The notes under the pieces: model-generated
Seen by the model: only the letters and a program-made list of their open reading frames with translations
Database searches by the model: none
What the model was told of the DNA's origin: nothing
Shown here: in pieces, positions 2,210 through 53,497 of the stretch
How the letters are laid out: each line of letters begins with the position of its first letter
Numbering within the stretch: the stretch's first letter is position 1
Assembly: GCA_010405405.1 (NCBI GenBank)
Contig: MU004234.1
Span: 2,205,697-2,269,696, forward strand
DNA from: Microthyrium microscopicum
Taxonomy: Eukaryota
Direction of reading: 5' to 3'
Length of the DNA stretch: 64,000 nt
Made by a program: the position numbers and the translations under genes

Positions 2210-3900
2210 ATGGCTCCGCCACCAACTGAAGAGGACTTTTACGCCATCCTTGAAGTCGAACAAGATGCTACGCCTGAGCAAATCATTAGCTCTTATAGAC
2301 GGCTGGCGTTACAAGTCCATCCAGACCGCAGCCCCGATCCCGATGCCACTGCAGCATTTCAAAAGGTATGCCACATTTCACGGACTGACGTAGTCTTCAG
2401 GTGGTCTCCAAGTCGCCCTCGCTAACATCGAATTTATAGCTCGGTCGAGCCTATGAGACCTTGAAAGACCCAGATCTACGTCTAGCCTACGATCGCAAAT
2501 CCGATTCCGACAAATACGAGTCCCCATTTGCACAGTACTCCGATTCACCTCGCTCTCCGCCCAGTTGGTTTTCGGACCCTTCGTTTTTCTGGCGTGCCGT
2601 CTTTGATGACAATTTCCGCGATGAAATACTCCTTGACGAACTCAATGCAAGAAAGGCACAACGTGCTGCGAATTGGCGCAAAGCAAAGAGACTCCTTGAA
2701 TGGCCAATCTACCAGTGGCAAGGACTTATTCGACGATTGAAGAAGGAGATAGAGAGCCTCAACAGCGCAGATGCTGTCGAAGTCGCTAAAGAGCTGATGA
2801 CAGAAGATGTAGAGGACAGCGAACATGAGCGAGCGCGTAAAGATAGGGCGAGACAAGAGAGACGAGTAGAGAAAGATATGAAGGAGCGGCGACTAGAGGC
2901 GCTAGAAAGCCAACTGAAGCAAAAAGAAGCGCAGCTACAGCAAGCAAAGCAGGACTTCGAGGCTGAAGATAAGCGCCATGATTCGAAGATAGAAGCATTG
3001 CGAAATAGAATACGAACGAGAGAACTGCGTGAGGAAGAGAGGATGAAAGCGGAAAAATTGAGACGAGAGCAAGCGGAGGCAGCAAAGACACCAAAATGGC
3101 AGCGATATCAAAAGGCAGAGGCAGAAAAGAAGGACAAGCGTCAGCAGGAAGCGGAGGCAGCAAAGAAGAAGCAGGAGAAGCAAGAAACAAAAGAGGCTAA
3201 CAAGAAGAAGAATCAGCAACAGTTCGAGGCAGGAAAGAAGAAGAGAGAGCAGAAAAAGGAAGCAGCCAAAGAGAAGAAGCAGCAGCAAGAAGAGGCAGCC
3301 AAGGAGAAACAGCAGCAGCTTGATGCAGAGGCTGCTATAAAGAGACAACAATTCCAGCAAGAAGTAGAGGCAGCGATAACGAAGAAGCAACAGGAAGAAG
3401 CCGAAGCCGCCAAAGAGAAGCAGCAACTAGAAGCGGAATTAGCTAGAAAGAAAAAACGCGAAGAAGAGATCGAGGCAGCTAAAAAGAAGCAGCTGCAGCT
3501 ACAAGCGGACGCAGCGAAAGAGAAGAAGCGACAGCAAGAAGCATCAGCTAAAAAGAAGAAGCAGCAACAGGAGATAGAAGCAGCTCAAAAGAAGAAACAG
3601 CAGCAGGAAGCAGAGGCAGCCAAGAAGAAGCAAGACCAAGAATTGGAGTCTTCGAAGAAGAAGACGCAAGTAGTAAACACGGCCAAAGAGCAGCAACAAG
3701 AACAAGAGACCAGCAAACAAACGACGGCAGAAAGTGTGCTCCCGACCACTTCATCAGCCAACTGTCTTCACGACCGCTGGTGGCCAAAACTACACGGTCG
3801 TCATACATGCTCGCGGTGCGAAAAGACTTCATTCCATATGCTGCGATGTCCAGGCTGCAAGATCAAAGCATGTACAAAGTGTAAGAAAGAGTTACGATGA
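2210..3900 (+). CDS. DnaJ (J-domain) protein with long K/E/Q-rich coiled coil and C-terminal Cys/His finger
   Basis: DFYAILEV...YRRLALQVHPD (HPD motif); intron 2365-2439 joins to LGRAYETLKDP; ends CLHDRWW...CSRC...CPGC...CTKC. Confidence 0.88.
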
Positions 3901-7893: not shown

Positions 7894-9376
7894 ATGAGAT
7901 CTTTCATTTTTCTTGTGGGGTTGGTTTCGGCTTCACCCGCTGTACTAAGTAGGTGTTATGCTCTTGACTTGAAAATAGGAGTGAGTTATCCAGGACACTA
8001 ATGTGAAGCAGGACCTAGACAGCACGATGGCCATGGTTCTTCGCCCATGAGCACCAGTGCGCTTCCTCAGGCACCCTCGAGCGTTTGGAGTCCAGTGAAA
8101 GCTGAAACTTTGAAGCCACAGGATACTCGTCCTGGTGTGAAGAGAGTTCGCTATACTATAGGACCATTCAAACTAAATCCCAGCGGCTATAAACGACAAA
8201 TGTATGAAGGACAAATGGGTAAGACATATCTCCCAATGCTTTGAAACACTCAAGGTCTTTCCTGTGATGCTCAAGCAGAAGACAAACCAGCTTATCTGAT
8301 TCGTGATTCTAGACCCCAACTCGGATGTATTCAAAGGACCATTGACAGGAATACCCAAGAACATCGTTGTGCTACAAACCAACAGCTCTTTTATAAACGA
8401 AGATGGCTCCCCAGCTGATATTGCCAATGGTCTCTACAATCATCATTTCATCGTGGCCGATGCCAACAAGATGGGACCCAGTCCTCTCAAATGTATCGAC
8501 GGGGGCGCCAACAATACGACTCCGAAGAACATGGGTTTATTGATGGGTGCTAGTGAAGCCAACAAGGATATGATATTCTCATCGTCCAAGAATTTGACTA
8601 CCGGCTTCATTGTTGGAGCCAACGATACAGTGATTGTTAGTGCCGAGCTTGTCAATTACAACAATGCCACCAAAACCGTCTATTTGCAATCAGAGCTCGA
8701 GTTTCAGAACGTCACGAGCGACGCTCTAGATACCAACTTCTTCCAGTTCGATATCAACATGTGCAACCCAGCCAAACCAGACCTTGTTGCCCCACCCGGA
8801 CAGAAGAAATGGTCGGTCACCAGCAAAAAAGTAGAGGTTGCTCAGAATGGATATATTTTGTTTCGACGAGGCCACATGCATGATGGAGGAGAAAGTGTTG
8901 AGCTCAGACTTAATGACAAACCGGTTTGCATAAGCACTGCCCATTACGGTGGCGAGTTGGGGACTGCTACTATCAACGGCGAAACCTGGGAGACAATCAG
9001 TCGCATGGAGCCATGCTTAGATCCAGTTCAAGTCAAAGTTGGCGACTTTTTGACAGTGACGGGAAACTTTGATCTTGCTGCCCATAAGTCGTAAGTACAC
9101 TATCGGTTTTCGCAGATTCCATTGCTTGATCTGACATGAACAGTCGCCAGCACTCTCATGGAAGCGGTATGGGAGAGCAAATGGCTCTCATGACGTAAGT
9201 ATTTCATTGTTGCTTCGAGCAGTTGACGCGCGCATCGATTGATGGTGTGATTAAGTGCTGTTATGTCGATTGCTATAGGAAGGCATTTAAGCATATCATC
9301 AATCAATGCTGGCATCTGAGTATGCTATGGACTTCGTGCTAACGCAGCCAGATACATGTTTGCACCCACAAAATAA
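7894..9376 (+). CDS. Secreted protein with copper type II monooxygenase-like His/Met motifs
   Basis: Signal peptide MRSFIFLVGLVSA; introns 7949-8011, 8219-8311, about 9091-9143 and 9195-9351 give one open frame with YNHH, GHMHDGG and C-terminal GEQMALM. Confidence 0.75.
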
Positions 9377-29573: not shown

Positions 29574-31286
29574 CTAGAGACAAAATCGGGTTCCTGCGAT
29601 CATAAAACAATAGTGAGACGGCTTAGGTAGGCTCATCGATGGGACGCCCCATCTATTGTTCCAAGACGCACCGTTAGCCGCGGTGGAAGCTGGCCAAGCA
29701 GTGGCAGGTGTTGGATTGGCCCAGCCGTTGGTGTATGGGCTGGGCACTGGAGTCGTGGAAGTGGCGAATGTTGATGGTTGTGTAAAGACTGGTACACTGG
29801 ATGTAAACAATGATGGTGAAGAGAGTGGGACGCTGTTTGGTGTAGGGACTGAAGAGACTTGAATGGGGGTCACTTGATTCGTGGTGTCTGGCACTGATTG
29901 TGGATTGGTAGGTATTGGTGTCGCGGAGCTTGGGAAGTCTGTGAGAGTTGGAACGGATGACAATACAGTCGCCGACGGCGCAGATACAACAATGTCGGTG
30001 GATCCACTTGATGATGGAGGAAATGCTGTGAACAGAGATGCCACCGGTGTTGTATCAGAGGCAGGTACCGTCAACGGCTGTGTTGGCTCGATGGTTGATG
30101 ATGATGGAAAGAAGTCGGTTATAACACTAATGACTGGGGTTGATTCCGAAGCTGAGGCTGGAGCTGTAGCAGTATCAGTTTCTGTCGTCGACGTGCTGAA
30201 TGCTGTCAACACTGTTTCGATAGGTGTGGTGGTGCCGGTAGCAATATCAGTATCCGTGGACAATGTGCTGAATGCTGTCAACACGGTTTCGACAGGTGTG
30301 GTGGTGCCGGTAGCGGTATCGGTATCAGTATCTGTGGACAAAGTGCTGAATGCTGTCAACACAGTTTCAACAGGTGTAGTGGTGCTGGCCGGGGCGATTG
30401 CTGGGGACGTAGCAGTATCTACAGTATCTGTAGTCGATGGACCAAAACCCGTCAAAATGGTTTCGACCAAAGTCGTGCTGTCGGTAGGGGTAGATGCTGG
30501 AGAAGTGACGGAGTCCGTAGTTTCTGTCTCCGTGAACGATCTTGTGCTATATTCCGTTAAGATTGTCTCGATAGGGGTAGTGGTATCGGCAGGAGAAGTT
30601 GTAGCGGCGCCTACAGTACTCTCAGGAGTTGAAACTTCCGGAAGTGTAGTCACGCCAGTGGTAGAAGGCGTCTCCGTGGTAACAAGACTCTCAGTCGCTG
30701 GGCTCGTTTCAACAGCCGATGTGATCTCGGGGGTGGAAGTTGAGTCTGTGATATCAGGTGTTGTAGTTGAATCCGTGACATCAGGGATTGGGGTCGACGT
30801 AACATCAGGAGTCGTAGTTGAATCCGTGACATCGGGAGTTGGAGTCGTAGTAACATCGACCGTGGAGCCAATATCACCAGTCGGTGTCTCTGTCCATACA
30901 GGTGTAGCCGTCTCCGACCACACCGGTATACTCGTCTCAGTCCATCCCGTCGTCTCAGTCCCAGGTACCGGCACAACCACAGCCGTACTAGTAACAACAA
31001 CAATCTCATCAGTCGAAGAGGGCGCCGTCGTCAACGCGCTCACACTTCCTCCACAAGTTCCAAAGCCCGTCTGACAGCCACTTGAACAGTACTCATCAGT
31101 TCCACCACACCAACCATACTGGCTACAGCAATCACCGTACGCGCTTCCCGTACATACATGACCGCTTGCTCCACCACAAGTACCATCAGGAGATGGCGTT
31201 GTATAAGAGGGTGGTTCATCCCACGCAACAGGCGAAGCAGCCACAAGCGCAGAGAGGCCGAGGAGAATTGCTGGAGAGAAATGCAT
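29574..31286 (-). CDS. Secreted CBM18 (hevein) chitin-binding protein with Thr-rich mucin-like region
   Basis: Signal peptide MHFSPAILLGLSALVAA; SPDGTCGG...CCSQYGWCG...YCSSGCQTGFGTC; long T/S/P-rich repeat region follows. Confidence 0.9.
   Translation of the reverse strand: MHFSPAILLGLSALVAASPVAWDEPPSYTTPSPDGTCGGASGHVCTGSAYGDCCSQYGWCGGTDEYCSSGCQTGFGTCGGSVSALTTAPSSTDEIVVVTSTAVVVPVPGTETTGWTETSIPVWSETATPVWTETPTGDIGSTVDVTTTPTPDVTDSTTTPDVTSTPIPDVTDSTTTPDITDSTSTPEITSAVETSPATESLVTTETPSTTGVTTLPEVSTPESTVGAATTSPADTTTPIETILTEYSTRSFTETETTDSVTSPASTPTDSTTLVETILTGFGPSTTDTVDTATSPAIAPASTTTPVETVLTAFSTLSTDTDTDTATGTTTPVETVLTAFSTLSTDTDIATGTTTPIETVLTAFSTSTTETDTATAPASASESTPVISVITDFFPSSSTIEPTQPLTVPASDTTPVASLFTAFPPSSSGSTDIVVSAPSATVLSSVPTLTDFPSSATPIPTNPQSVPDTTNQVTPIQVSSVPTPNSVPLSSPSLFTSSVPVFTQPSTFATSTTPVPSPYTNGWANPTPATAWPASTAANGASWNNRWGVPSMSLPKPSHYCFMIAGTRFCL
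30190..30385 (-). repeat. Intragenic tandem repeats encoding TTTP(V/I)ETVLTAFST units
   Basis: Three near-identical copies of GTGCTGAATGCTGTCAACAC.GTTTC on the + strand with degenerate copies on both sides. Confidence 0.85.
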
Positions 31287-32136
31287 AGTGAATGTATAGA
31301 AAGGACAGTATAAAAAGCGAAGGACTGAGCAAAGTAGCGAACGTGTATGTAGCGAGTGGGAGTTTACAGAAAACAAAAATTCGGATCTAGCAACTGAACA
31401 CAATAAGAGCCTGGCCACGGATTTCTTATATTAGCAACAATCCCATCATCCAGAACCGAGTCGTATTTCTCGGAACAACACCATGTCTGTCCACGGGTGG
31501 CGCATCGTCAGAATTTTCGCTGTGGATATGACACTTCCGAATATCTCGACATTGTCCGCAAGTCGATGATGTATCGTGGCGTTATGTGTTACGGTTTGGC
31601 ACGAGCTGAGTTGCCATACGCACGCCTCATATAGGGGAGAGCGGGATTGTGCGACGTGGCTGCTAGGTCAAACGGTGTGTGTGACAATAACCTTGGAAGT
31701 TAAGAAGTTTTTATAGATATCCAGGAATTGGGCTAGAGATGTAAGCGAGTTTGATTGCTCAGCTATGTAGAAGTGGAAGTAATATTCCACAAGGGAGGTA
31801 GATTACGTGCGCCATAGAGTATGATATGTGTTCGTTGTCAATTGTTGTACAAAGCCAACATCGTCGGCAGAAAAATGCAATGAGCTTCATATGCTACCGA
31901 TAACTTAGCAAAATAAATGGCATGCTTCCACCAAGTGTGTCATCCCCAATCGTACTTTACGACGAAAAGATTCGTCCATTCCGAGCGTATTCCCTATACG
32001 CCATGCCAAAATGCTTGAAGCCTATGCAAATGCTGTAGACCAGACTCACGATCGCGTCATCAGAAAACGTCATTATACAATTCAAAGGTCGTGCGGAGGT
32101 GTATCATTACATGTATGCTACACCATATCTGATCCG

Positions 32137-35100
32137 CTATCTTCGATCCGCACGTTCATAAAATATCATAAATGTGCCTTTAGGAGGGTGATGAGCGAAT
32201 TTACCCTCATCATGATCTCTTATACTTTCGTCATTGTATTCGCGCCAGACCCCTCTGGGGCGATCGTGCACGTATGCTTTATAGTGACCGCTGCTTAGCT
32301 GTGCGCCGAGATGCTCAACGATAGCATAAGCGGTGTACTTCGATAGACCGAGGAAGCTTTCATTGATTTTGACTGGATCGCTGGCCTGGAAATTGGTCAG
32401 TAAAAGATTAGGGACAGAGCTAAGACGCTTCAAGAGACCAAATGGTCTGATTCGGGTGAAATCCTAAACCACCCATCAGATTCATTGGGGCCCATAACGC
32501 TCGATGAGGAACACATTATATGGTAGCCATCGAGTGCAATGGGAAAGACAATGCTTCATTTCTTCGGATGTATTAATAAATGTCAGTGAATCTTACCACT
32601 TGTTGAGGAGAAGGCGGAGTAGGCATATAACGGGCCAGGTCAAGATTCATAGGATAATCAATGACTTTGTTGATCTTAGTGCTCCCTTGGTCGGTATGAG
32701 CGAAGCGTTTAAGGGTAACGACCAGGTAAGGAGGAGCGCGCGTGAGACGCAGGCGTTTGACAGTGTTGCGAAGCACTTTGCATTTGCTGCAGCGCCAAGC
32801 ATCTTCGCCAGAGAGATATTCTTCGCTGTAATGTGAATCGAGGCAGTCGTACAGCGTCTTGGCTTTGGGCGGAATGTCGACCGTCAAGTTATCCGCAACG
32901 TTGTAAGCAGTAGAAGTGGTGTTGCAGGTTAGGCAGCGTAGCTGTGAAGACTCCTGGCTGTAGAATATGTCGGATACTAGGCTGCGATCGCGCTTGATGT
33001 AGCGCTCCCATTCAATACTTGCGACTTTGAAGGGAGGCATCTTCTCGCGTCTTGCTTCCTCTTCTTCGCTGAGTACGTGTGCTCGTTCGCCTTGGGAGTT
33101 TATATTGAGATCCACATGTAAGGTATCCAATAGGAACATGAAGAATTCCATTGCATCTTGTTGTCGTTGATCGACCCATCGAGAAGTTAGACGCCCACAA
33201 AATCGTCGAAACGTCTCGGGTGCAAAAGCTCGGCCATCCATCTGCCACAAAGTGGTGACAACTTGAGCAAATGCACCCGGCAAAAGACCACTTGATCCTG
33301 TGAAAGTTCCGATATTGTTGTGTTGCAACCATTTTTGGAAACTCCCATCAAGAAATGGCATCGAGAATGATATAGTCGCGCTGAGACATTGAAGAACAGA
33401 GTTCATATAACACGTTTGGCCCATATTGCGTAAACCGGTTCTAGGAATTCGAGTATTGGAAGGCTTTTCTCCGGGTGAGATGTACCGCGCTAGGCTATTG
33501 GAACGATTGCTGTTATACTGCTGGAGGCCATTTCTGTCATGCGCGCCGCTGTAGCTATGTCTTGGTGCGGCTGGTGCTGGTCGAGCTGGCATTTCGTGCT
33601 CTGGCTCAACTCGCCGATTTCGTGTGTACAAGTCCTGCGAGACTGGTCGAGATGGAGGTGGTGACGTAAATTGTCGGTTAGATTGATAGGCCGTAATCAT
33701 CGACTCTTGCTCTTGAGGTATGGCGGGATATCGTCTAAGGAAATCGTCTTGAGACCTATAATATCCAGAATCCAGTTCTGAGTTGGGCTCATCTTGTTCT
33801 GGGATTGGCTCTTCTGCGGGAGCAGTAGACAACGAAAGGCTCTCTGATCTCATTTGCTCCTGCCATTGCTTTTCTTCCTCGGGAGTGAGTGGGTTAAATT
33901 CTCGAATCCTGCGCCTACGCGTGGACTGAGAAGCTGACAGTGATGCAGCGGCTGACATACGGCGTGTACGTTTGCCAGCTTGTGTTTGTGATGTAAAAAG
34001 AGCAGCCGGACCCAACAGATTGACCCAGGATTCGAGCCCACCATTGAGTATGATCGGAGGGTTTTTCAATGGTTTGTCGTGGTTGTAGTCGACCAGAGCA
34101 TCGTAGAGAATACGTAATCGTTCTTCTTGATCATTTTTGGCCGAAGTGAGGAAAGACGGATTTGAAGTTGATTGGTCGTAAAAGACTACAAAATCATAGG
34201 TGTCTCGCTTCTTAAACATAGTTTCTTCGGCATCCGGCGAAATGCTGAGAGAGCTTTCAATGTCAGTGGCTGATATACCACTTCTGAGTTGTAATGGTTC
34301 AACACAAATGACACACTGTGTATCAATGTGACCCCCATCGAAATCGGATCGACTTCGGACATCAATCAGGAGGATATTGTACAATCGGAGGAATTCGAAT
34401 AGTTGATCGGCCGTGATAGACCCACCAGTAGAGAGGCCAACGATTCCCTTTCGCCTTGCTTGATTGGGAGACGACTGATTGTTGGCTCTGGGGAAATAAG
34501 ACCCAGCCTCCCAGTCAGCATTTGGTGGACGTGATTGCGCAATTGAGGCGGCTCTACCACCAGTGCCAACTATGCTTCGTGCCGAAGTCCTGGGAGGATT
34601 CACACCTATTGGTGTGACCATGTTCCTTGCAGGACTAAAGGTGGGGCTTGGCGGTCTTGGAAGTGAAGCAGCAAGCTTTGTATCCAATGGAAGCTTCGGA
34701 GGCAACGATGGAACATTTATGCCATTTGAAGGCATCGGTCGTGGTCCAGCAGGTCGAAGTGTAGAAGGTACGCCAATTGGTGGCGCGGCGGCAGGTATGG
34801 ATATTGATGATGGCCTACTGTAATCAGATGGCGATGGCATCCTGACGGGAGCAGTAGCAGAAGGATATTCTGTAGCTTCAGCGCTTGAAGCTGGCCGTAG
34901 GGCGGCGAATCTTTCCGCGAGGGTCCCCGGCTTAGGTCGAACAGGAGGCTTCGGTTTGGGAGAGGCGGGCAGACCAGGCATCCTGTTCTGTGGTGGAGGC
35001 GGAGATTGAGCGGAGGCAATTGTAGACGCGATTGAGTAATTTGATGATTGACTCTGAGGACGCGACGCAGCCGGAGAAATCTGCGAGGATGATACGGAAG

Positions 35101-36093
35101 GTTCGACGCCGTTTTGTGAGGATGCGGAAGGATGGACCCCAGTACGTTGATTATCGTTTACAATGATTGCGCGAATCTTCTGAAATTGATCTTTCTTGCT
35201 GAGCAGGTTGTTCCCTAATAGCTTTGCCAGACGAAACGACTCGCTCTTAGTATGACCTGGAATTCGTTAGTATAGGATTCCGATCGAAGAACACGCCTAA
35301 AGAATAAGCGGTCTGTTCGTGGTGAAATCATAAAACACCCATCGTATTTTATGGTAGCCATTAAGTGCGATGGGAGACATAATTGTTTTGGTTCCATTGG
35401 ATGTCGTTGGAGAATGTGATTTTGCACAGGGATATGTTACCTGTGACCATATCTGCATATCCAGGAGTTCGGAGAAGTTTCTGCATGACCAGATCGTATG
35501 CGATGGCGTATTCGATATACGCTTGATCCCGTCGATCGCGATACTGAGCGAAATCCTCGGACAGGCGGTTGCAATGATCAGCAGTCTCCAGTAGTTTAGG
35601 TATCTGTAAGTCCCGGTAAGCAATGCATCGACGGACTAAACAAATAACACGCTCCATTTGACTGTGATTGCGCCCATATGCCGCGATCTATAATCGTGTG
35701 ATTTAATTCGCATCAACCTTGCTGGCTCCCACATGTTGCATTCTATGATCGAGTGCATCATTCTCCATCGCCTGCATTCAATTCTTGACATTTTATCGAA
35801 GACGATGGGAAATAACGCACTAGATCATAGAACGCAGAGTATGGGAGCCAGCGAGGTTGATGGGAGTGCGCCGGCAGTTGAGTGTCACGTACCGTATATC
35901 CTTGGTACGACGATAGTCGTCTCCGGATTTCGCCCTCGATATCCTTGATATGGCGGCCATCCCTAGGACCAGGAGGTGTGCCATTTCTAGCAAAGGACGG
36001 TATGTTCATCCCGTTGAGATGGTTCGTGGCGGGCTTCCTGGTTATTGGAGGGTCGTTTGGGTAAGGCGGAAGACCCAGAGAGGCAGAAGACAT
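32137..36093 (-). CDS. DOA4: Ubiquitin C-terminal hydrolase with rhodanese-like domain (Doa4/Ubp4/USP8 type)
   Basis: LLIDVRSRSDFDGGHI rhodanese segment; Cys box GLRNMGQTCYMNSVLQCL; QQDAMEF; His box HLGAQLSSGHYKAYV; introns 35604-35892, 35257-35440 and 32386-32596 keep the frame. Confidence 0.9.
35711..35862 (-). repeat. 60-bp imperfect inverted repeat (hairpin) in DOA4 intron 1
   Basis: Arms 35711-35770 and 35803-35862, 32-nt loop, ungapped; 49/60 Watson-Crick pairs plus 5 G-U pairs on the pre-mRNA strand. Confidence 0.95.
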
Positions 36094-36882
36094 GTTCTGA
36101 AAACGGGCTGGGCTCTACGATAGCAGCATATCGGGTAGTAGCGAGTGACGCTCTGGAAGGTGTCGCCCTGAGAGGCGCAAACAAGAAGACTTAGGGACGT
36201 GTAGGCGGCAGTGATGGTGATGGCGATGGCGTAGGAAGGCGTCAACGGATATAGTCGGTATAGACACGGGAAGAAAGGTATATTTAGCGACTGCAGGCGT
36301 ATATATTGAGAGCGAGATGTTGTTAGGAACTGCGAAAGATAAAAGAGGGAGTCAGGAGGATTTGAAATTGTAGAGTGATGTATAGTTGTATGGTGGTGAT
36401 TTAGCGATTTGGTGATCTCACTACTCCCCGAGTCGATGGACCACAGACTGATTGATGTTGAGAGGCTCCAGGCGGCGGTAATCCTTAGCGTGTAAGACTA
36501 GACCAAGCGGCTGATGATTAAGCAGCCCCACCATTACTAGCGTGGCGATATCTCCGCTAACTTCCGCTGACTTCCACTGAAGGAGGCGGATGCCAAGTAA
36601 AAGGCCACATGCTCCTCTCTGCCCTGTGCCTCTTGCGCTTGCCCTTCAAAGCTTCAAGCTCCATCCATTTCTGGCAGTCGCAGTTGCCTCCTCCGCTGAT
36701 CTGATCACCAACATTCAACTTCTCTCTCGTCTTCTACCACTTCCACCACAAGCCTAATCATTAAACCCCTCTACGTATCCCCAGCCATATCCGCCATTTA
36801 TTTCACTTACTACCGCCTACCATCTGCACTACATCTACGTCTTTCTGAACTCTAACCTGTTGCCTGCCCGCATCCAACCACC

Positions 36883-39282
36883 ATGGCCGGTTGGTTTTCT
36901 TCCTCAAACTCCGCTTTGGACGGCCAAATAGAGCAAGCAACTGCAGACAGCTTGTATGTATCTCACTGATCTTGCTGGTCCTAAGCTTACACACATCCAG
37001 AGAGGACATTGCCCTCAATCTCGAAATCTCCGATGTCATTAGATCCAAGACTGTCCAGCCCAAAGAGGCTATGCGGTCATTGAAGAAGAGAATAGGCAAC
37101 AAGAATCCAAATATCCAGCTCGCCGCTCTACACGTACGATCATACCCTTGTACTTTTCAGAAGGTTACTAACCATTCTTAGTTGACCGATACTTGCGTCA
37201 AAAATGGAGGCTCACATTTCATGACTGAGATCGCTTCGCGCGAGTTCATGGACAACCTCACCTCCCTACTCAAAGCTTACGGACCCGCCGCTATCAACGA
37301 AGATGTCAAGGGTTTAATACTTGAGCTCATTCAGGCTTGGGCAGATGCTGCACAAGGACGACCCCAGTTAAATTACCTTCAAGAAGTTTATCAATCCTTA
37401 CAACGCGAAGGCTTTCATTTCCCACCCAAACAAGCTGTAGCTAGCAGTATGTTTGATACCAATGCCGTAGGTTTTGATGGAATGTTCCCAAAATCTTCAT
37501 GAGCTAACCTCGACTACAGCCCCCAGAGTGGATAGACTCTGACGTTTGCATGCGTTGCCGAACCGCCTTTACCTTTACGAATCGAAAACATCACTGCCGA
37601 AATTGTGGAGGTGTTTTCTGTGGATCTTGTACGACCAAGACAATGCCATTATCTCACTTGGGAATTCAACAGGCTGTGCGCGTGGACGATGGATGCTACC
37701 AGAAACTGATTGACAAGAACCGAGGCACACCTGTTCCAAAGTCCTTCGATGCTACACGACCACCTCCCAAGACATTATATCAAGGCATGCAACCTCGCGA
37801 CGCTCGGGTAGAAGACTCGTTCGACGCGGATCTGAAAAAGGCCCTGGAAATGAGTTTGGAAGAGGCAAAGGCTCCTCAGGGTCAAGGATACGTACCACAG
37901 GCACAGGCTCGCCAAAACAAGCCTCTTCCAAATGGCAACTCATTTTCGAAACCACTACCGCAGCCTCAAGAAGAAGACGAGGAGGATGCAGAGCTCAAAG
38001 CGGCGATAGAAGCATCGCTCAGAGATATGGAAGAGCAAAAGAAGCAACATTCTGCAACACTCAAAACTCAAGCCGCGACTGCAAATGGATCTTCCAAACC
38101 ACTTCCAAAACCAGATGAATTGACTGCTGCCGAGGCCGAGAATATTAATTTGTTTTCAACATTAGTTGAGCGACTTCAACATCAACCACCAGGAACCATT
38201 CTTCGAGAGCCCCAAATTCAAGAATTGTATGAAAATATAGGTTCATTTCGGGTAAAACTTGCTAGAACGTATGGTGAGACGATGAGTAAACATGGTATGT
38301 ATTTTGGATTAGTTTCGTTCTACGTTAACTAATGATTTCAGATGCGCTTCTAGATCTACACTCTAAACTGGCGACAGTCGTGCGTTACTACGATCGCATG
38401 CTAGAAGATCGCCTCTCCAAGACGTACCAACAGCCAGCTGGTGGATATGGATCACCAGCCCATTTTGGCCAAGCATCGTCAAATCCATATCCAAATATGC
38501 CAACTGCTCCATCGAATCTTGAAAGCTACTATACTGGCTCGGCAGCACCATCAGATTCCTATGCTAGACCGCAATCAACGTATGCAGGATACCCCCCTGC
38601 CCAATCCCCGTATCCTCAACAAGCGACTCCTCAACAGCCTTGGCAGAGACAGCCCTCAGAAACTCCATATTCTCCAGCAGCTCAGCCTTATGCTCCCCAG
38701 CCTTATTATGAAGGAGCACAACCACCCCAACGGACTGCAAGTTTTTCTTCTTATCCTCCACAGCCTACAGAAACCCCTACTATGCAATATCCCCAACTTC
38801 AAAGACAGCCTTCATATCCGTCTCAATCTACTCAGTCCCAGCAAATATCATCCCAACCTCCACAGCAGCCTACTCCATCATCCCTTTCAAATGATCCTTC
38901 CACGGCCTACTACTTTCCCGACCGTGCGCAAGCTGAGCCACAACCTTCTCAACAACAAGTACCTCAGGGCACACCTGCCCAACCGCCTCAACATCTTCAT
39001 CAACAACCGCCGAACTCTCAACCAACTCTACCGCCACAAATGCATCCTCAGACTGCTCCAGTTGCCCCTGGAGCTGCTAACCCACAAGCCACGCAGGCTC
39101 CAGCGGCGTACCAAACCGCACCGCCGCAGACTTATCAAACAAATCCACAACAGCCGCCACCAGCCCAACCATTGCAGCACTGGCCCCAGCAACACTTCAC
39201 AGCTGCCGGCTACGGGCCCGAGAGCTTCCCAACAGTCCCACACGCCCAGCCAAAGGTAGAAGAAGCACTGATTGAACTATAA
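36883..39282 (+). CDS. VPS27: ESCRT-0 subunit Vps27 (VHS-FYVE-UIM-UIM-GAT, P/Q-rich tail)
   Basis: [38 protein letters not shown], UIMs [10 protein letters not shown] and [11 protein letters not shown]-terminal clathrin box ALIEL; four introns. Confidence 0.95.
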
Positions 39283-44825: not shown

Positions 44826-46599
44826 CTATATCACTGGTTCCCAAACCTGTAATATCTGCTTGAAAGGATCGACCGCCAAAATTCTCCGACCGTCTCCTTG
44901 AAGTACAAAAACATTGAGTACTAGACCCTCGCCAGAATTTTCCATCTGCATCGACTTACCAGACTCTACGTCTGTCAAATATATGCCCGCCCTTGGAGTC
45001 GAAGTTGCCCCGCTCATATAATTCGCAGTGACAAAACAAGACCCATCAGATGATATGGAAGGTGACAAGAAAGCGCTGGATTGATTTTGTAGCAAGGACC
45101 TGTGGGTAATTTGTGATTTCTTCATATCGACCACAACTGAGAAAGGCATAGTGGATTCTGGCGGGAAGTGTTTTGTGGCCGCGTTTGATGATTTATGGAG
45201 CCAGGACTTTATATGCCTAAGAATGCTTTTCTTTTCGTTTCGCACTGGGGTCCAGTGCTGGTGATGAGATGCCGATTGTAACAGCACTATTTGATTGTCA
45301 TTCAATGCGAACGAGGCTCGAAGAGTTGGTGATGTGATAACAGGATGAATGCCCCAGTTTTCTAGGCTGATCTTGTGAAGAAGCGATCCATCCGCAAGGT
45401 TGATGATTTCCACGATCCGGCTAAATTTCTTTGATTCTATGAATTTGTCAGCTTGTGCTCTTTCAAGAACATCGGTTAGATGTCTTTGTTGCCGGTGATA
45501 GCATGAAAGCTTGTGAGCTGATCTGCTTCTATGTGCTTGGCCTGTAGCTCAACTGAATAGACTACATTCTAGACATAGTGACAGTCTTTTGACCAGCACC
45601 AGGAGAGTCCACGAAAATCTCGTGCGAGAACTTACTAAAGCAGGTAACTTTAAGGTACTGACTGAGCAGTCTGGTACAATCTTTGGAGAATTCCATGGCC
45701 CAGCAATTGCGAGCTTCTCCTGGATATTCTTGAGCCCATACCTCCTCGCCTGACTCGGCATCTAGCACGATGGTCTTTGGTATGCATTTTTCAAATGTTT
45801 GATATGCGAACAGTCTACCATCTCTGGACAGCTTGTTCATTGGCATGCCCTCAAACATGACATGATCCCGATTGTTATGTTGCTTGCTATTCTTAGTGCT
45901 CCAAATTTTGATCATATATCGCCAAATATAGTATTCTGGGTTTTCTTTTTGCTTTCCACTGCATTGCAAGACAGTTGTGAGAAATCCATCATCTCGGAAT
46001 TCCATTGCCACTATGCTTTTGTGCCGACAATTCGATTCTGGGTCCTCATCGACCAAGAAGTCATAATTTGAATCCGTCAGCTGGAGGTTCTGTGTCCTTT
46101 CCATATCTTCCGTCGTTCCCAGTATCAAAGTGCCGTATCCTGCCGGATCTGGAATTGTCACAGTGGTGTCGATTCTGAATGGACGAGTGTTACGCTTATG
46201 CCAAATAGCAAACTGTTGTCCATGGCCAGCTAACGCGTTATCCCACCCATAGCGAAAATTTGCATTGTTGGCTTGGGGCAAAGTGAAAGTCGAGCTTGAA
46301 ATTTTTGCAGCTCCCATCCAAGTATCCGCATCTGTGGTGATAAGTTCTTCGCGCTTTTTGCGAAAACTGGAGACTGAAGAAGAATGTTTTGGCTTATCGA
46401 TTAAAGGCTTCTCTCTGTCTCCAGCTCGAACACATTTGAGTGTTTCCTCGGAAGGATTGTCGTATCCAAATGCGCTGACTACTGTCTCGGAGTCTGATAT
46501 GGATATTTGGTCGAAAGACACGCTATTCACAGAAGTTGAATAACGGTCAAGCGAAAGAGTAGGAAGCTTTGAAGTTGTACTTTCGCAGTGCCCACCCAT
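44826..46599 (-). CDS. Hypothetical protein, probable beta-propeller (WD40-like)
   Basis: Two ORFs joined in frame by GTAAGT...CTGAC...TAG intron 45437-45635; blade-like segments AMEFRDDG, LSRDGRLFAY, MEFSKDC, ISSDGSCFVT, LQVWE. Confidence 0.65.
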
Positions 46600-52068: not shown

Positions 52069-53497
52069 ATGACAACGGCAGCTGTTCCAGATTGCGTGCT
52101 CTTGCCTCTACTCACAAAACTTATACCACTGGGAAGAGATTTTGCGGAAACTTTCTCTGAGACTTACTCGCAACTCTATTCTATTTATTCTCAAGAACAG
52201 CACAACGGTATTCGTGTCTGATTCCAATCCGGTATCAAGACGTTTTTGTGGGCCGCGGCGCATACGACACCACTGGTACACCAAACCCACATCCAGCGCA
52301 ACTCTGGTTTAAACCTCCTTCTACCTTTATAATGTACTCGATCCTGATTGAACATTGATAGACGTAGGTACATAAAGACAATCCGCAGACTTGCCCAGCG
52401 CAACAGGTATCTACCTACCAGTCGACGGCCTGGTCATTTCGCGGATCCTTCGTCATTTCAACAGTGCTTCGTTGCTACCCGGCCAGGATCTTTGGTTTCC
52501 CATGACCTGTTTTGGCTGCAAAACTTTCATACTTGGGCAACTCCGCACTTCAGATCTCGTTGCTCCAGTACATCACCGCTGGTTTCAAAAGTAAAATCTT
52601 GCCAAGTTTCAACAGACTCATACGCTTTGGTGGTCGGAGATCTTTAATAAATCCTCCGCGCATTAGCCATGACATTTCAAGATAACCACTGCCTTTCCTT
52701 TGCGGCCAACCTATGCTCAAGAAAATCAAAAAGCGCAATGTTAGAAAGTCAAGGCAAGCTGAAAATGGACATTGCTCCACAAAGCCATCGCAAGTCCATC
52801 GCCAACTCTCGAAAACCCAATGACTTCGCTGGCATTGGGAGCCACTTGCAAGGAAATCTCAACACCATCCGCCGCCCTGATGATAACTTTAGTGAGTGAG
52901 GATATGATCAGCACCTAAAAGTTCCTGAGCTAACCTAACCCACAGTTTTCGTGTCACCTACTCTGGACCTTGAGGATCTGGAACTCGGGGATGTCCCAAC
53001 AAAGCCCCATCTCCGAACCTATATTGCCACTGGTCAAGGATATTGCAGTGAGCCGCCCAGGCATTCAATTCCCCAGATAGTTCGTCAGTATTAGCTCTCA
53101 AATATCCACCAGTAATGGTTTAACACTCCCCTAGTTGTAATTCGCGACGATTGCAGCCTTGCCAATGGCTTGCATCTCACAGGTGATTGGTGGCGCCCTC
53201 AACAAGGGGCCCACATGGCAGCTGTCACATCGGCAGCCTCATCGATTTGTCCACCGAGCTCATCCAGCGATGCCAGCCCAATCTTCACTCCTAATTCAAC
53301 TGCCAACTACAGCATTCCAGATACCACAATTCCATTTCATCATGAATCGGACACAGAAGCCACATAGAAGACCACGAGGCTCACAATTGGTCTTCAAGAA
53401 GGTCATGGAGCCTTTTTTCGAAATCGTCATACTTTTCACTTTTTGTGGCCGTCTGGCCAGCGCGCTGTCTTTTCCTCAGCTCATTCCACTTCTGTGA
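52069..53497 (+). CDS. Possible multi-exon hypothetical gene (model unresolved)
   Basis: Canonical-looking introns (GTGAGT at 52892 to CTAAC...CAG at 52945; GTCAGT near 53084) between short open frames; no recognisable domain. Confidence 0.3.

Follow-up and report, generated by a model that had tools for sequence, protein, structure and literature searches.

Related long introns, one of them with a 158-nt palindrome, in the DOA4 gene of Microthyrium microscopicum

A stretch of 64,000 nucleotides from the Dothideomycete Microthyrium microscopicum (contig MU004234.1 of assembly GCA_010405405.1; the whole stretch is called the window below, and all positions refer to it) harbours on its minus strand a four-exon gene, DOA4, with three introns (I1, I2 and I3). 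These introns are unusually long and were found to be related to one another, strongly so for I2 and I3 and moderately for I1. A previous sequence-only reading of this DNA had noted the resemblance and had offered local intron propagation or a repeated functional RNA as its cause. The explanation favoured here, to which we give about an even chance, is that I1, I2 and I3 are paralogues derived from a single hairpin-bearing, introner-like intron that was copied within DOA4 and is now decaying.

Shared blocks and a palindrome in the DOA4 introns

The three introns, with their splice signals, occupy the following positions:

35604..35892, minus strand: intron 1 (I1), 289 nt, phase 0, GTACGT...CAG, with a weak branch site GCTTAC
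35257..35440, minus strand: intron 2 (I2), 184 nt, phase 1, GTAACA (a weak donor)...TACTAAC...CAG
32386..32596, minus strand: intron 3 (I3), 211 nt, phase 0, GTAAGA...TACTGAC...CAG

The lengths given in the sequence-only reading proved exact when the borders were re-derived with the open reading frame. All three introns carry canonical spliceosomal signals, and the predicted splice product is backed by the orthologue alignment. Control introns were collected from the window with a crude signal-plus-open-frame filter and checked against split Pfam domains (GH76, GSHPx, SOD, Vps27 and multicopper oxidase); two codon-usage-scored intron finders were dropped because they were too insensitive, missing even the DOA4 introns. 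Two candidates of the filter were removed from the controls, 33889-33948, which is antisense within DOA4 exon 3, and 38924-39096, which is coding-like. The plausible short introns, 13 in number, measure 47, 48, 53, 53, 54, 55, 56, 59, 64, 71, 74, 93 and 116 nt, nine of them inside the range of 45-65 nt that had been quoted for most introns here. The median of the control introns is 56 nt and all of them are shorter than every DOA4 intron, the latter being 3-5 times the usual length.

The kinship of the introns is seen in a 26-nt block present in all three, in a second block shared by I2 and I3, and in a short motif near the 3' end. These features, all reported in the sequence-only reading, were recovered at the positions listed:

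35840..35865, minus strand: 26-nt block of I1, the outer part of the hairpin 5' arm
35350..35375, minus strand: 26-nt block of I2, found by BLASTN and pattern match
32519..32544, minus strand: 26-nt block of I3, the 5' arm of a hairpin of the 16-bp class formed with 32491-32506
35310..35344, minus strand: second shared block of I2, its first bases GATGGG pairing with the start of the 26-nt block
32444..32478, minus strand: second shared block of I3, found by BLASTN, alignment and pattern match
35646..35652, minus strand: GCGTGTT of I1, 49 nt from the 3' end
35290..35296, minus strand: GCGTGTT of I2, 40 nt from the 3' end
32422..32428, minus strand: GCGTCTT of I3, 43 nt from the 3' end

Counted manually, the 26-nt block is identical at 23/26 positions between I2 and I3, at 20/26 between I1 and I3 and at 19/26 between I1 and I2. 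In BLASTN searches against the whole window the second block of I2 and I3 (35310-35343 and 32444-32477) matched with 88.6 % identity over 35 columns (31/35; E = 2e-5) and the first-block region of the same pair with 81.6 % identity over 38 nt (E = 6e-5); the sole match of either intron in the window was the other of the pair. Smith-Waterman alignments with the splice signals trimmed were compared with 1000 dinucleotide shuffles per pair. The I2-I3 score of 46, against 16.0 +/- 2.2 for shuffled sequences (z = 13.5), was reached by none of the shuffles, the I1-I3 score of 27 by 2/1000 and the I1-I2 score of 19 by 153/1000, while the DOA4 introns scored at most 24 against the 14 control introns. 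From the first block to the 3' splice site, I2 and I3 align with 99 matches and 24 mismatches (80.5 % identity, Jukes-Cantor distance 0.23) and a single 35-nt gap, the extra sequence being in I3; global alignments of I1 to I2 or I3 were gap-ridden and were excluded from the identity estimates. The last 24 nt of I2 and I3, comprising branch site and acceptor, are more alike than those of 90/91 control intron pairs. The motif GCGT(G/C)TT, which was picked after being seen, is absent from all 14 control introns. The claim that the three introns are homologous is thus beyond doubt for I2 and I3, whereas I1 is a more distant member, tied to I3 in these alignments but not to I2. The kinship of I1 is supported by the 26-nt block, by the same palindromic plan and by the position of GCGT(G/C)TT.

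This palindromic plan escaped the sequence-only reading: the 26-nt block belongs to a palindrome, of which it forms one arm, and I1 contains a hairpin of 158 nt:

35708..35865, minus strand: imperfect palindrome (hairpin) in I1, 158 nt, with ungapped arms 35800-35865 and 35708-35773

The palindrome covers positions 28-185 of the 289 nt of I1 and gives an opposite-strand BLASTN self-match of 158 nt (74.7 % identity, E = 2e-25). Its 66-nt arms are 80 % complementary, and no inverted repeat in the window is longer; a mirror copy of the 26-nt block lies on its other arm (35708-35733; same pattern with 2 mismatches). The minimum free energy (MFE) of folded I1 is -124.1 kcal/mol (z = -8.88), a stability equalled by 0/200 shuffles, and the hairpin counts 64 bp in the sense fold. 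It is plausible that this hairpin folds away about 160 nt and would so shorten the effective distance from donor to branch site. I3 has a shorter hairpin, in which CCCAUUGCACUCGAUG pairs with CAUCGAGCGUUAUGGG, and I2 keeps only the stem CCCAUCG / CGAUGGG; neither I2 nor I3 is more stable than its shuffles (MFE z = -1.51 and -1.54, respectively; control introns -1.3 to +1.8). The arms of all three introns nevertheless align on one consensus, CCCATY..CTY..TGGCT.CCA, and GATGGG at the start of the second block is the outer end of the 3' arm of the palindrome. The arms of the I1 hairpin differ by 20-25 % and I2 differs from I3 by 19.5 %, similar divergences as neutral decay since one burst predicts. 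A protein search for translated copies with a 62-aa open frame inside I1 returned no candidate, which says little.

No copy of either block was found outside DOA4 in the window by BLASTN (word size 7), by nhmmer (--max) with an I2+I3 profile or by patterns allowing 3 mismatches, the chance expectation of pattern matches in 64 kb being 0.01 for the first and 0.00 for the second block; beyond the DOA4 introns the profile returned only noise (E = 0.9). The 80-nt exon flanks on both sides of the three introns resemble each other to the extent expected of shuffled sequence, 175-493 of 500 shuffles scoring at least as high as the real flanks. Since the exon flanks are unrelated, the trio is not a segmental duplication.

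Other introns of the window were also inspected. A candidate of 199 nt at 45437-45635 (minus strand; GTAAGT...GCTGAC...TAG) links two long open frames without a Pfam match; its structure is ordinary (z = -0.7) and its sequence is unlike that of the DOA4 introns. Another candidate, of 157 nt at 9195-9351 (plus strand; GTAAGT...GCTAAC...CAG; predicted junctions), lies near the 3' end of a Nod19-like gene and has a central hairpin (MFE z = -2.0) with 34-nt arms at 9225-9258 and 9283-9316 that are 76 % complementary and form the second-longest inverted repeat in the window. Its comparison with the DOA4 introns gave no convincing similarity (best of six tests, 4/300 shuffles). Two short introns of different genes, 37467-37519 and 52892-52945 (both plus strand; 53 and 54 nt), share a 3' stretch of 32 nt with 75 % identity (TGAGCTAACC...ACAG), but their kinship was rejected, as the full alignment shows little in common past the splice signals.

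The DOA4 gene model and intron positions in relatives

Removal of the three introns joins four exons into an open frame of 1090 aa with intron phases 0/1/0:

35893..36093, minus strand: exon 1, with ATG at 36093, an open frame and a stop upstream, aligning with the orthologue N-termini MSAAxPLPP...HIxDL
35441..35603, minus strand: exon 2, matching the ...RDQAYIEY... region of the orthologues
32597..35256, minus strand: exon 3, coding for the Rhodanese domain and most of the UCH domain
32137..32385, minus strand: exon 4, with the stop codon and the end of the UCH domain (Pfam UCH profile positions 197-253)

The predicted product matches the Pfam families UCH (1.8e-40) and Rhodanese (5.1e-6), a layout that is the Doa4/Ubp4/USP8 architecture, and several orthologues carry the source name 'ubiquitin-specific protease doa4'. 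The top database match, 100 % identical, is P0001, an 808-aa 'cysteine proteinase [Microthyrium microscopicum]'. This public model begins at an internal Met in exon 3, and so is without exons 1 and 2 and without introns 1 and 2. It places intron 3 at 32599..32428 (GTGGTA...GAAG, with weaker borders), which results in 14 extra residues (RLSSVPNLLLTNFQ) that are missing from the closest relatives. In the protein alignment the exon 1/2 and 2/3 junctions fit the full-length orthologues without gaps, and the I2 junction fits the closest relatives. Because exons 1 and 2 align with orthologue N-termini, I1 and I2 are required. Judged from these alignments, the gene model of the sequence-only reading is better supported than P0001, which is truncated at its N-terminus and seems to mis-place intron 3.

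Relatives of the gene were found with exon 3 as the query (118 proteins). Intron positions in these were deduced at the protein level, from the ends and read-through tails of unspliced open reading frame (ORF) calls and not from the DNA of the relatives. Such unspliced calls account for 32/118. In their terminal parts ...[TSN][FL]R is succeeded by V and then by unrelated sequence, a sign that the frame continues into a GT... intron behind the position corresponding to M. microscopicum residue 805:

33205..33206, minus strand: site after residue 805 (...PETFR/RF...), a phase-0 intron in 32 relatives and continuous exon in M. microscopicum DOA4

The phase-0 intron after ...TFR is missing in the closest relatives (P0002-P0005) as well. 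On this protein-level evidence a widely conserved intron was probably lost in the M. microscopicum clade. The I2 site is crossed without interruption by 22/32 of the unspliced relatives and the I1 site by 8-9/32, and an end at the I3 site is seen in none of the 32. Residues 806-1008 served as query of an exhaustive HMMER search; of the 146 representatives that have a BLAST alignment, 144 extend over the I3 site. It is also crossed by nine short ORF-type fragments, which run from about residue 796-849 to the true C-terminus, and P0181, a distant protein, stops some 10 residues short of it. P0002 and P0004, the closest relatives (50-52 % identity, on 4-5-kb contigs), likewise span the I2, 805 and I3 sites. 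As the I2 and I3 sites are uninterrupted in relatives, these two introns are most readily read as gains in the M. microscopicum lineage, repeated losses elsewhere being less parsimonious.

DOA4 lies head-to-head with a Vps27/Hse-type gene (36849-39279, plus strand; VHS, FYVE, UIM and GAT-like domains), the two starts being about 750 bp apart. Both genes belong in the endosomal sorting complex required for transport (ESCRT) / multivesicular-body ubiquitin pathway, and because of this common role a shared bidirectional promoter is possible. The window also contains two coding tandem repeats, a 33-39-nt periodic K/E/Q/A-rich array at 3130-3665 (plus strand) within an open frame of 486 codons that has no Pfam match, and 78-nt and 51-nt repeats at 30154-30849 (minus strand) in a 618-codon frame with a weak chitin-binding match.

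Origin of the related introns

Four kinds of published introns resemble the DOA4 trio in part. Same-gene duplicated introns (SGD), of which 82 were reported in 24 fungi, are of ordinary length and folding energy; half of the cases are without duplication of the flanking exons, and transposition within the same transcript was proposed for them (Collemare, van der Burgt & de Wit 2013, PMC3609843). The DOA4 introns share with these the occurrence of similar introns in one gene without duplicated flanking exons. They differ in that the set comprises every intron of the gene. Their confinement to one gene is known for the 64 kb of the window. Introner-like elements (ILEs) are present in hundreds of copies in unrelated genes, are about twice as long as regular introns, form stable structures and degenerate quickly (PMC3609843). 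Here the Dothideomycete host, the canonical signals, a length about twice the normal or more, the stable I1, the intron-less positions in orthologues and the decay in both length and sequence are in agreement with the DOA4 introns (PMC3609843; PMC4457414). The high copy number in unrelated genes that defines ILEs contrasts with a trio without other copies in the window; moreover, I2 and I3 are not unusually stable, and no match to Fulvia fulva or Dothistroma septosporum sequence was found in four supplementary files of the 2015 ILE study (PMC4457414).

In the Hypoxylaceae, proliferating introns with terminal inverted repeats of 45-55 nt (about 73 % identity) have been described; cropped derivatives exist, insertion leaves no target-site duplications, and in three genes the intron is present twice (Fekete et al. 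2021, PMC8469720). These sister (stw)introns are like the DOA4 introns in their long imperfect inverted repeats (75-80 % in DOA4), cropped copies, lack of target-site duplications and several copies per gene. However, their repeats are terminal and join donor and acceptor, while the I1 palindrome sits inside the intron, with 27 nt before it on the 5' side and 104 nt after it on the 3' side; the DOA4 introns have no stwintron nested donor (G/GT) at their 5' ends, and the host class differs. Transposon-derived introners, finally, are elements that create an intron on insertion, and the palindrome arms of I1 could be read as their inverted repeats (PMC9860276; PMC12130899), although ascomycete introners are generally without target-site duplications and terminal inverted repeats (PMC9860276). 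The homology of the DOA4 introns differs from such an element in extending past the palindrome, and there is no target-site duplication at I1 or I3. The junctions read tatacg/GT...CAG/atacct for I1, cacag/GT...CAG/gtcata for I2 and aagtg/GT...CAG/gccagc for I3, and the sole direct repeat among them, CAGGT...CAGGT at I2, is the proto-splice consensus itself. The DOA4 trio is ILE-like in form and SGD-like in distribution.

Of the interpretations in the sequence-only reading, homology with local propagation has held as the leading one, since there are no other copies in 64 kb, the flanks are not duplicated and relatives have no I2 or I3 intron; functional RNA found no support. Several observations weigh against copying of one founder within DOA4. 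The published SGDs are ordinary introns (PMC3609843), whereas the DOA4 introns exceed the usual length 3-5 times, being long in the way of ILEs, and I1 contains an extreme hairpin. The I1-I2 score is not significant alone, and the I2+I3 profile found the 5' arm of I1 at no better than E = 1.8 in a two-strand search of 128 kb (its 3' arm, on the opposite strand, at E = 4.6). The 5' parts of I1, I2 and I3 (27, 65 and 52 nt) show no similarity, 59/91 control pairs scoring equally high, and a clean whole-intron copy would not predict such unlike 5' parts unless later turnover is assumed. The I2 donor GTAACA is non-consensus, and all I1-I3 junctions are predictions from sequence. With respect to position, nine ORF-type relatives start within 10 residues of the I1 site, and P0004, P0061 and P0071 have Q just before it, as a phase-0 CAG acceptor would give; I1 may thus occupy an older intron site. 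The unspliced state of the ORF-type relatives is itself deduced from their read-through tails. Confinement to DOA4 was established over a window of 64 kb, and the hairpin of candidate intron 9195-9351 suggests that long hairpin introns may be a wider habit of the M. microscopicum genome.

A genome-wide ILE family, of which I1-I3 would be degenerate members that inserted three times in DOA4 as an attractive target or by chance, is a serious possibility that we nevertheless consider rather unlikely. Canonical signals, a length well above that of ordinary introns, the very stable I1, positions that are intron-less in relatives and the second hairpin-bearing long candidate intron in the window (9195-9351) all fit such a family. 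Repeated insertion has precedents as well: four genes with two ILEs each are known, a single gene took four insertions over three species (Collemare et al. 2015, PMC4457414), and in Hypoxylon three genes have two sister introns each (PMC8469720). Yet no further copy is present in 64 kb with at least 14 other introns, and with about 12,500 genes three random insertions in a single one are very unlikely unless the family is huge (own arithmetic). The block motifs gave 0 matches in the four supplementary files with F. fulva / D. septosporum material (PMC4457414). In two genome-wide surveys GCA_010405405.1 is entered with 0 introner families (PMC9860276, Supplementary Table 4; PMC12130899, supplementary file 7), though their filters would miss old or degenerate families. 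The screen needs at least 4 annotated introns that are similar end-to-end and lie in non-paralogous genes (PMC9860276). Because of this filter, and because two of the DOA4 introns lie outside the public gene model, the trio or an old family would have been missed. Among the matches listed in a literature search for the name Microthyrium microscopicum, none was on introns by title or start of abstract. On balance we lean towards propagation in cis rather than chance co-insertion of members of a dispersed family.

It is improbable that a small foldback element, like a miniature inverted-repeat transposable element (MITE), inserted secondarily into three unrelated pre-existing introns. The shared block is indeed a palindrome arm, the 5' parts of the introns are unrelated, I1 without its 158-nt hairpin would measure about 131 nt and the I1 site is perhaps an old intron site; moreover, intron similarity restricted to the interior often stems from secondary insertion of a transposable element (Gozashti et al., PMC9860276). 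At the I2 and I3 sites, however, relatives have no intron to receive the element. The I2-I3 similarity does not stop at the palindrome but continues as far as the 3' splice site, and GCGT(G/C)TT lies outside the palindrome in all three introns. There is no target-site duplication around the I1 palindrome and no copy of it in the intergenic DNA of the window.

Selection on the repeated blocks as functional RNA, be it a regulator of DOA4 splicing or stability, a Dicer substrate or an intron-hosted non-coding RNA, is judged very improbable. Conservation of the blocks (23/26 and 31/35) against poorer flanks would be expected of such an RNA, as would the stem CCCAUYG/YGAUGGG, kept in I2 and I3 via two changes that give sense-strand G-U pairs. 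The I1 hairpin also folds somewhat better in sense than in antisense (-96.6 vs -85.7 kcal/mol; 7 vs 4 G-U pairs). In I2, though, the antisense fold is the better one (-21.5 vs -13.1) and in I3 the two are equal, so that strand-specific folding as a sign of selection at the RNA level showed no consistent sense advantage over the three introns. The stability of I2 and I3 is like that of shuffles (z = -1.5), the palindrome is largely deleted in I2, and the matching divergence of about 20 % within I1 and between I2 and I3 points to neutral decay from one event. Relatives appear to be without these introns altogether, the I1 site being ambiguous. A scan of 32000-36300 against Rfam 15 at E <= 10 gave nothing relevant; the sole match was sR11, on the opposite strand inside exon 3, with 17.1 bits against a gathering threshold of 39. 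Chance resemblance of AT-rich introns without common origin could accommodate the I1-I2 score and the weak profile match to I1, but it is refuted already for I2-I3 by the shuffles, by two BLASTN matches with no comparable match elsewhere in the window and by the low scores against control introns, and is hardly credible.

Proposed copying, decay and significance for intron gain

Under the favoured explanation of copying within DOA4, the founder would have been a long intron, or an introner-like element, in which a long palindrome preceded unique sequence reaching up to the 3' splice site. In the M. microscopicum lineage it would have been copied into new sites of DOA4, I2 and I3 being gained where relatives have plain exon. 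I1, with its full 158-nt hairpin, could be the copy from which the others came, or else it inserted as a third one where some relatives perhaps already had an intron. The copies would be removed by the ordinary spliceosome and would have no function of their own. After copying, substitutions would have accumulated to about 20 %, and the interior of the palindrome would have been deleted, most in I2 and in part in I3. The route may have been in cis: the intron, once excised, would have been reverse-spliced into the transcript or locus that it came from, and reverse transcription and recombination would have followed. Such a route corresponds to the SGD class without duplicated exons (Collemare, van der Burgt & de Wit 2013). 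A more specific version holds that an excised, hairpin-stabilised, I1-like intron entered other sites of its own transcript or locus by reverse splicing and became fixed on two occasions, a gene that had lost its ancestral intron thereby obtaining a full new set from a single founder; this version is put forward tentatively, as a doubtful one. As a speculative addition to it, the 64-bp duplex of I1 might be diced into small RNAs acting on the sibling introns.

Neutral rates in ascomycetes of 1e-9 to 1.3e-8 per site per year have been given (PMC12130899). At these rates the Jukes-Cantor distance of I2 and I3 corresponds to roughly 9 to 110 million years (own arithmetic). On this reading the introns are old copies that are no longer active.

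The origin of new spliceosomal introns is still argued, with reverse splicing set against DNA transposition. DOA4 would be a compact case in this respect, in which all introns go back to one founder, two or more of them occupy sites where relatives have plain exon, and a widely conserved intron has been lost. Since the full palindrome is left in one copy only, birth, spread and decay of such introns would be visible side by side. The case also indicates that surveys relying on annotated, end-to-end similar introns can miss examples like DOA4. It does not represent a new kind of element, as both same-gene duplicates and hairpin-bearing ILEs have already been published; its main value lies in a clean natural case for the intron-gain debate and in the correction of a public gene model. 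If it is true that the founder hairpin lets the excised RNA survive and re-insert, DOA4 would be a natural and tractable substrate for tests of spliceosomal retrohoming.

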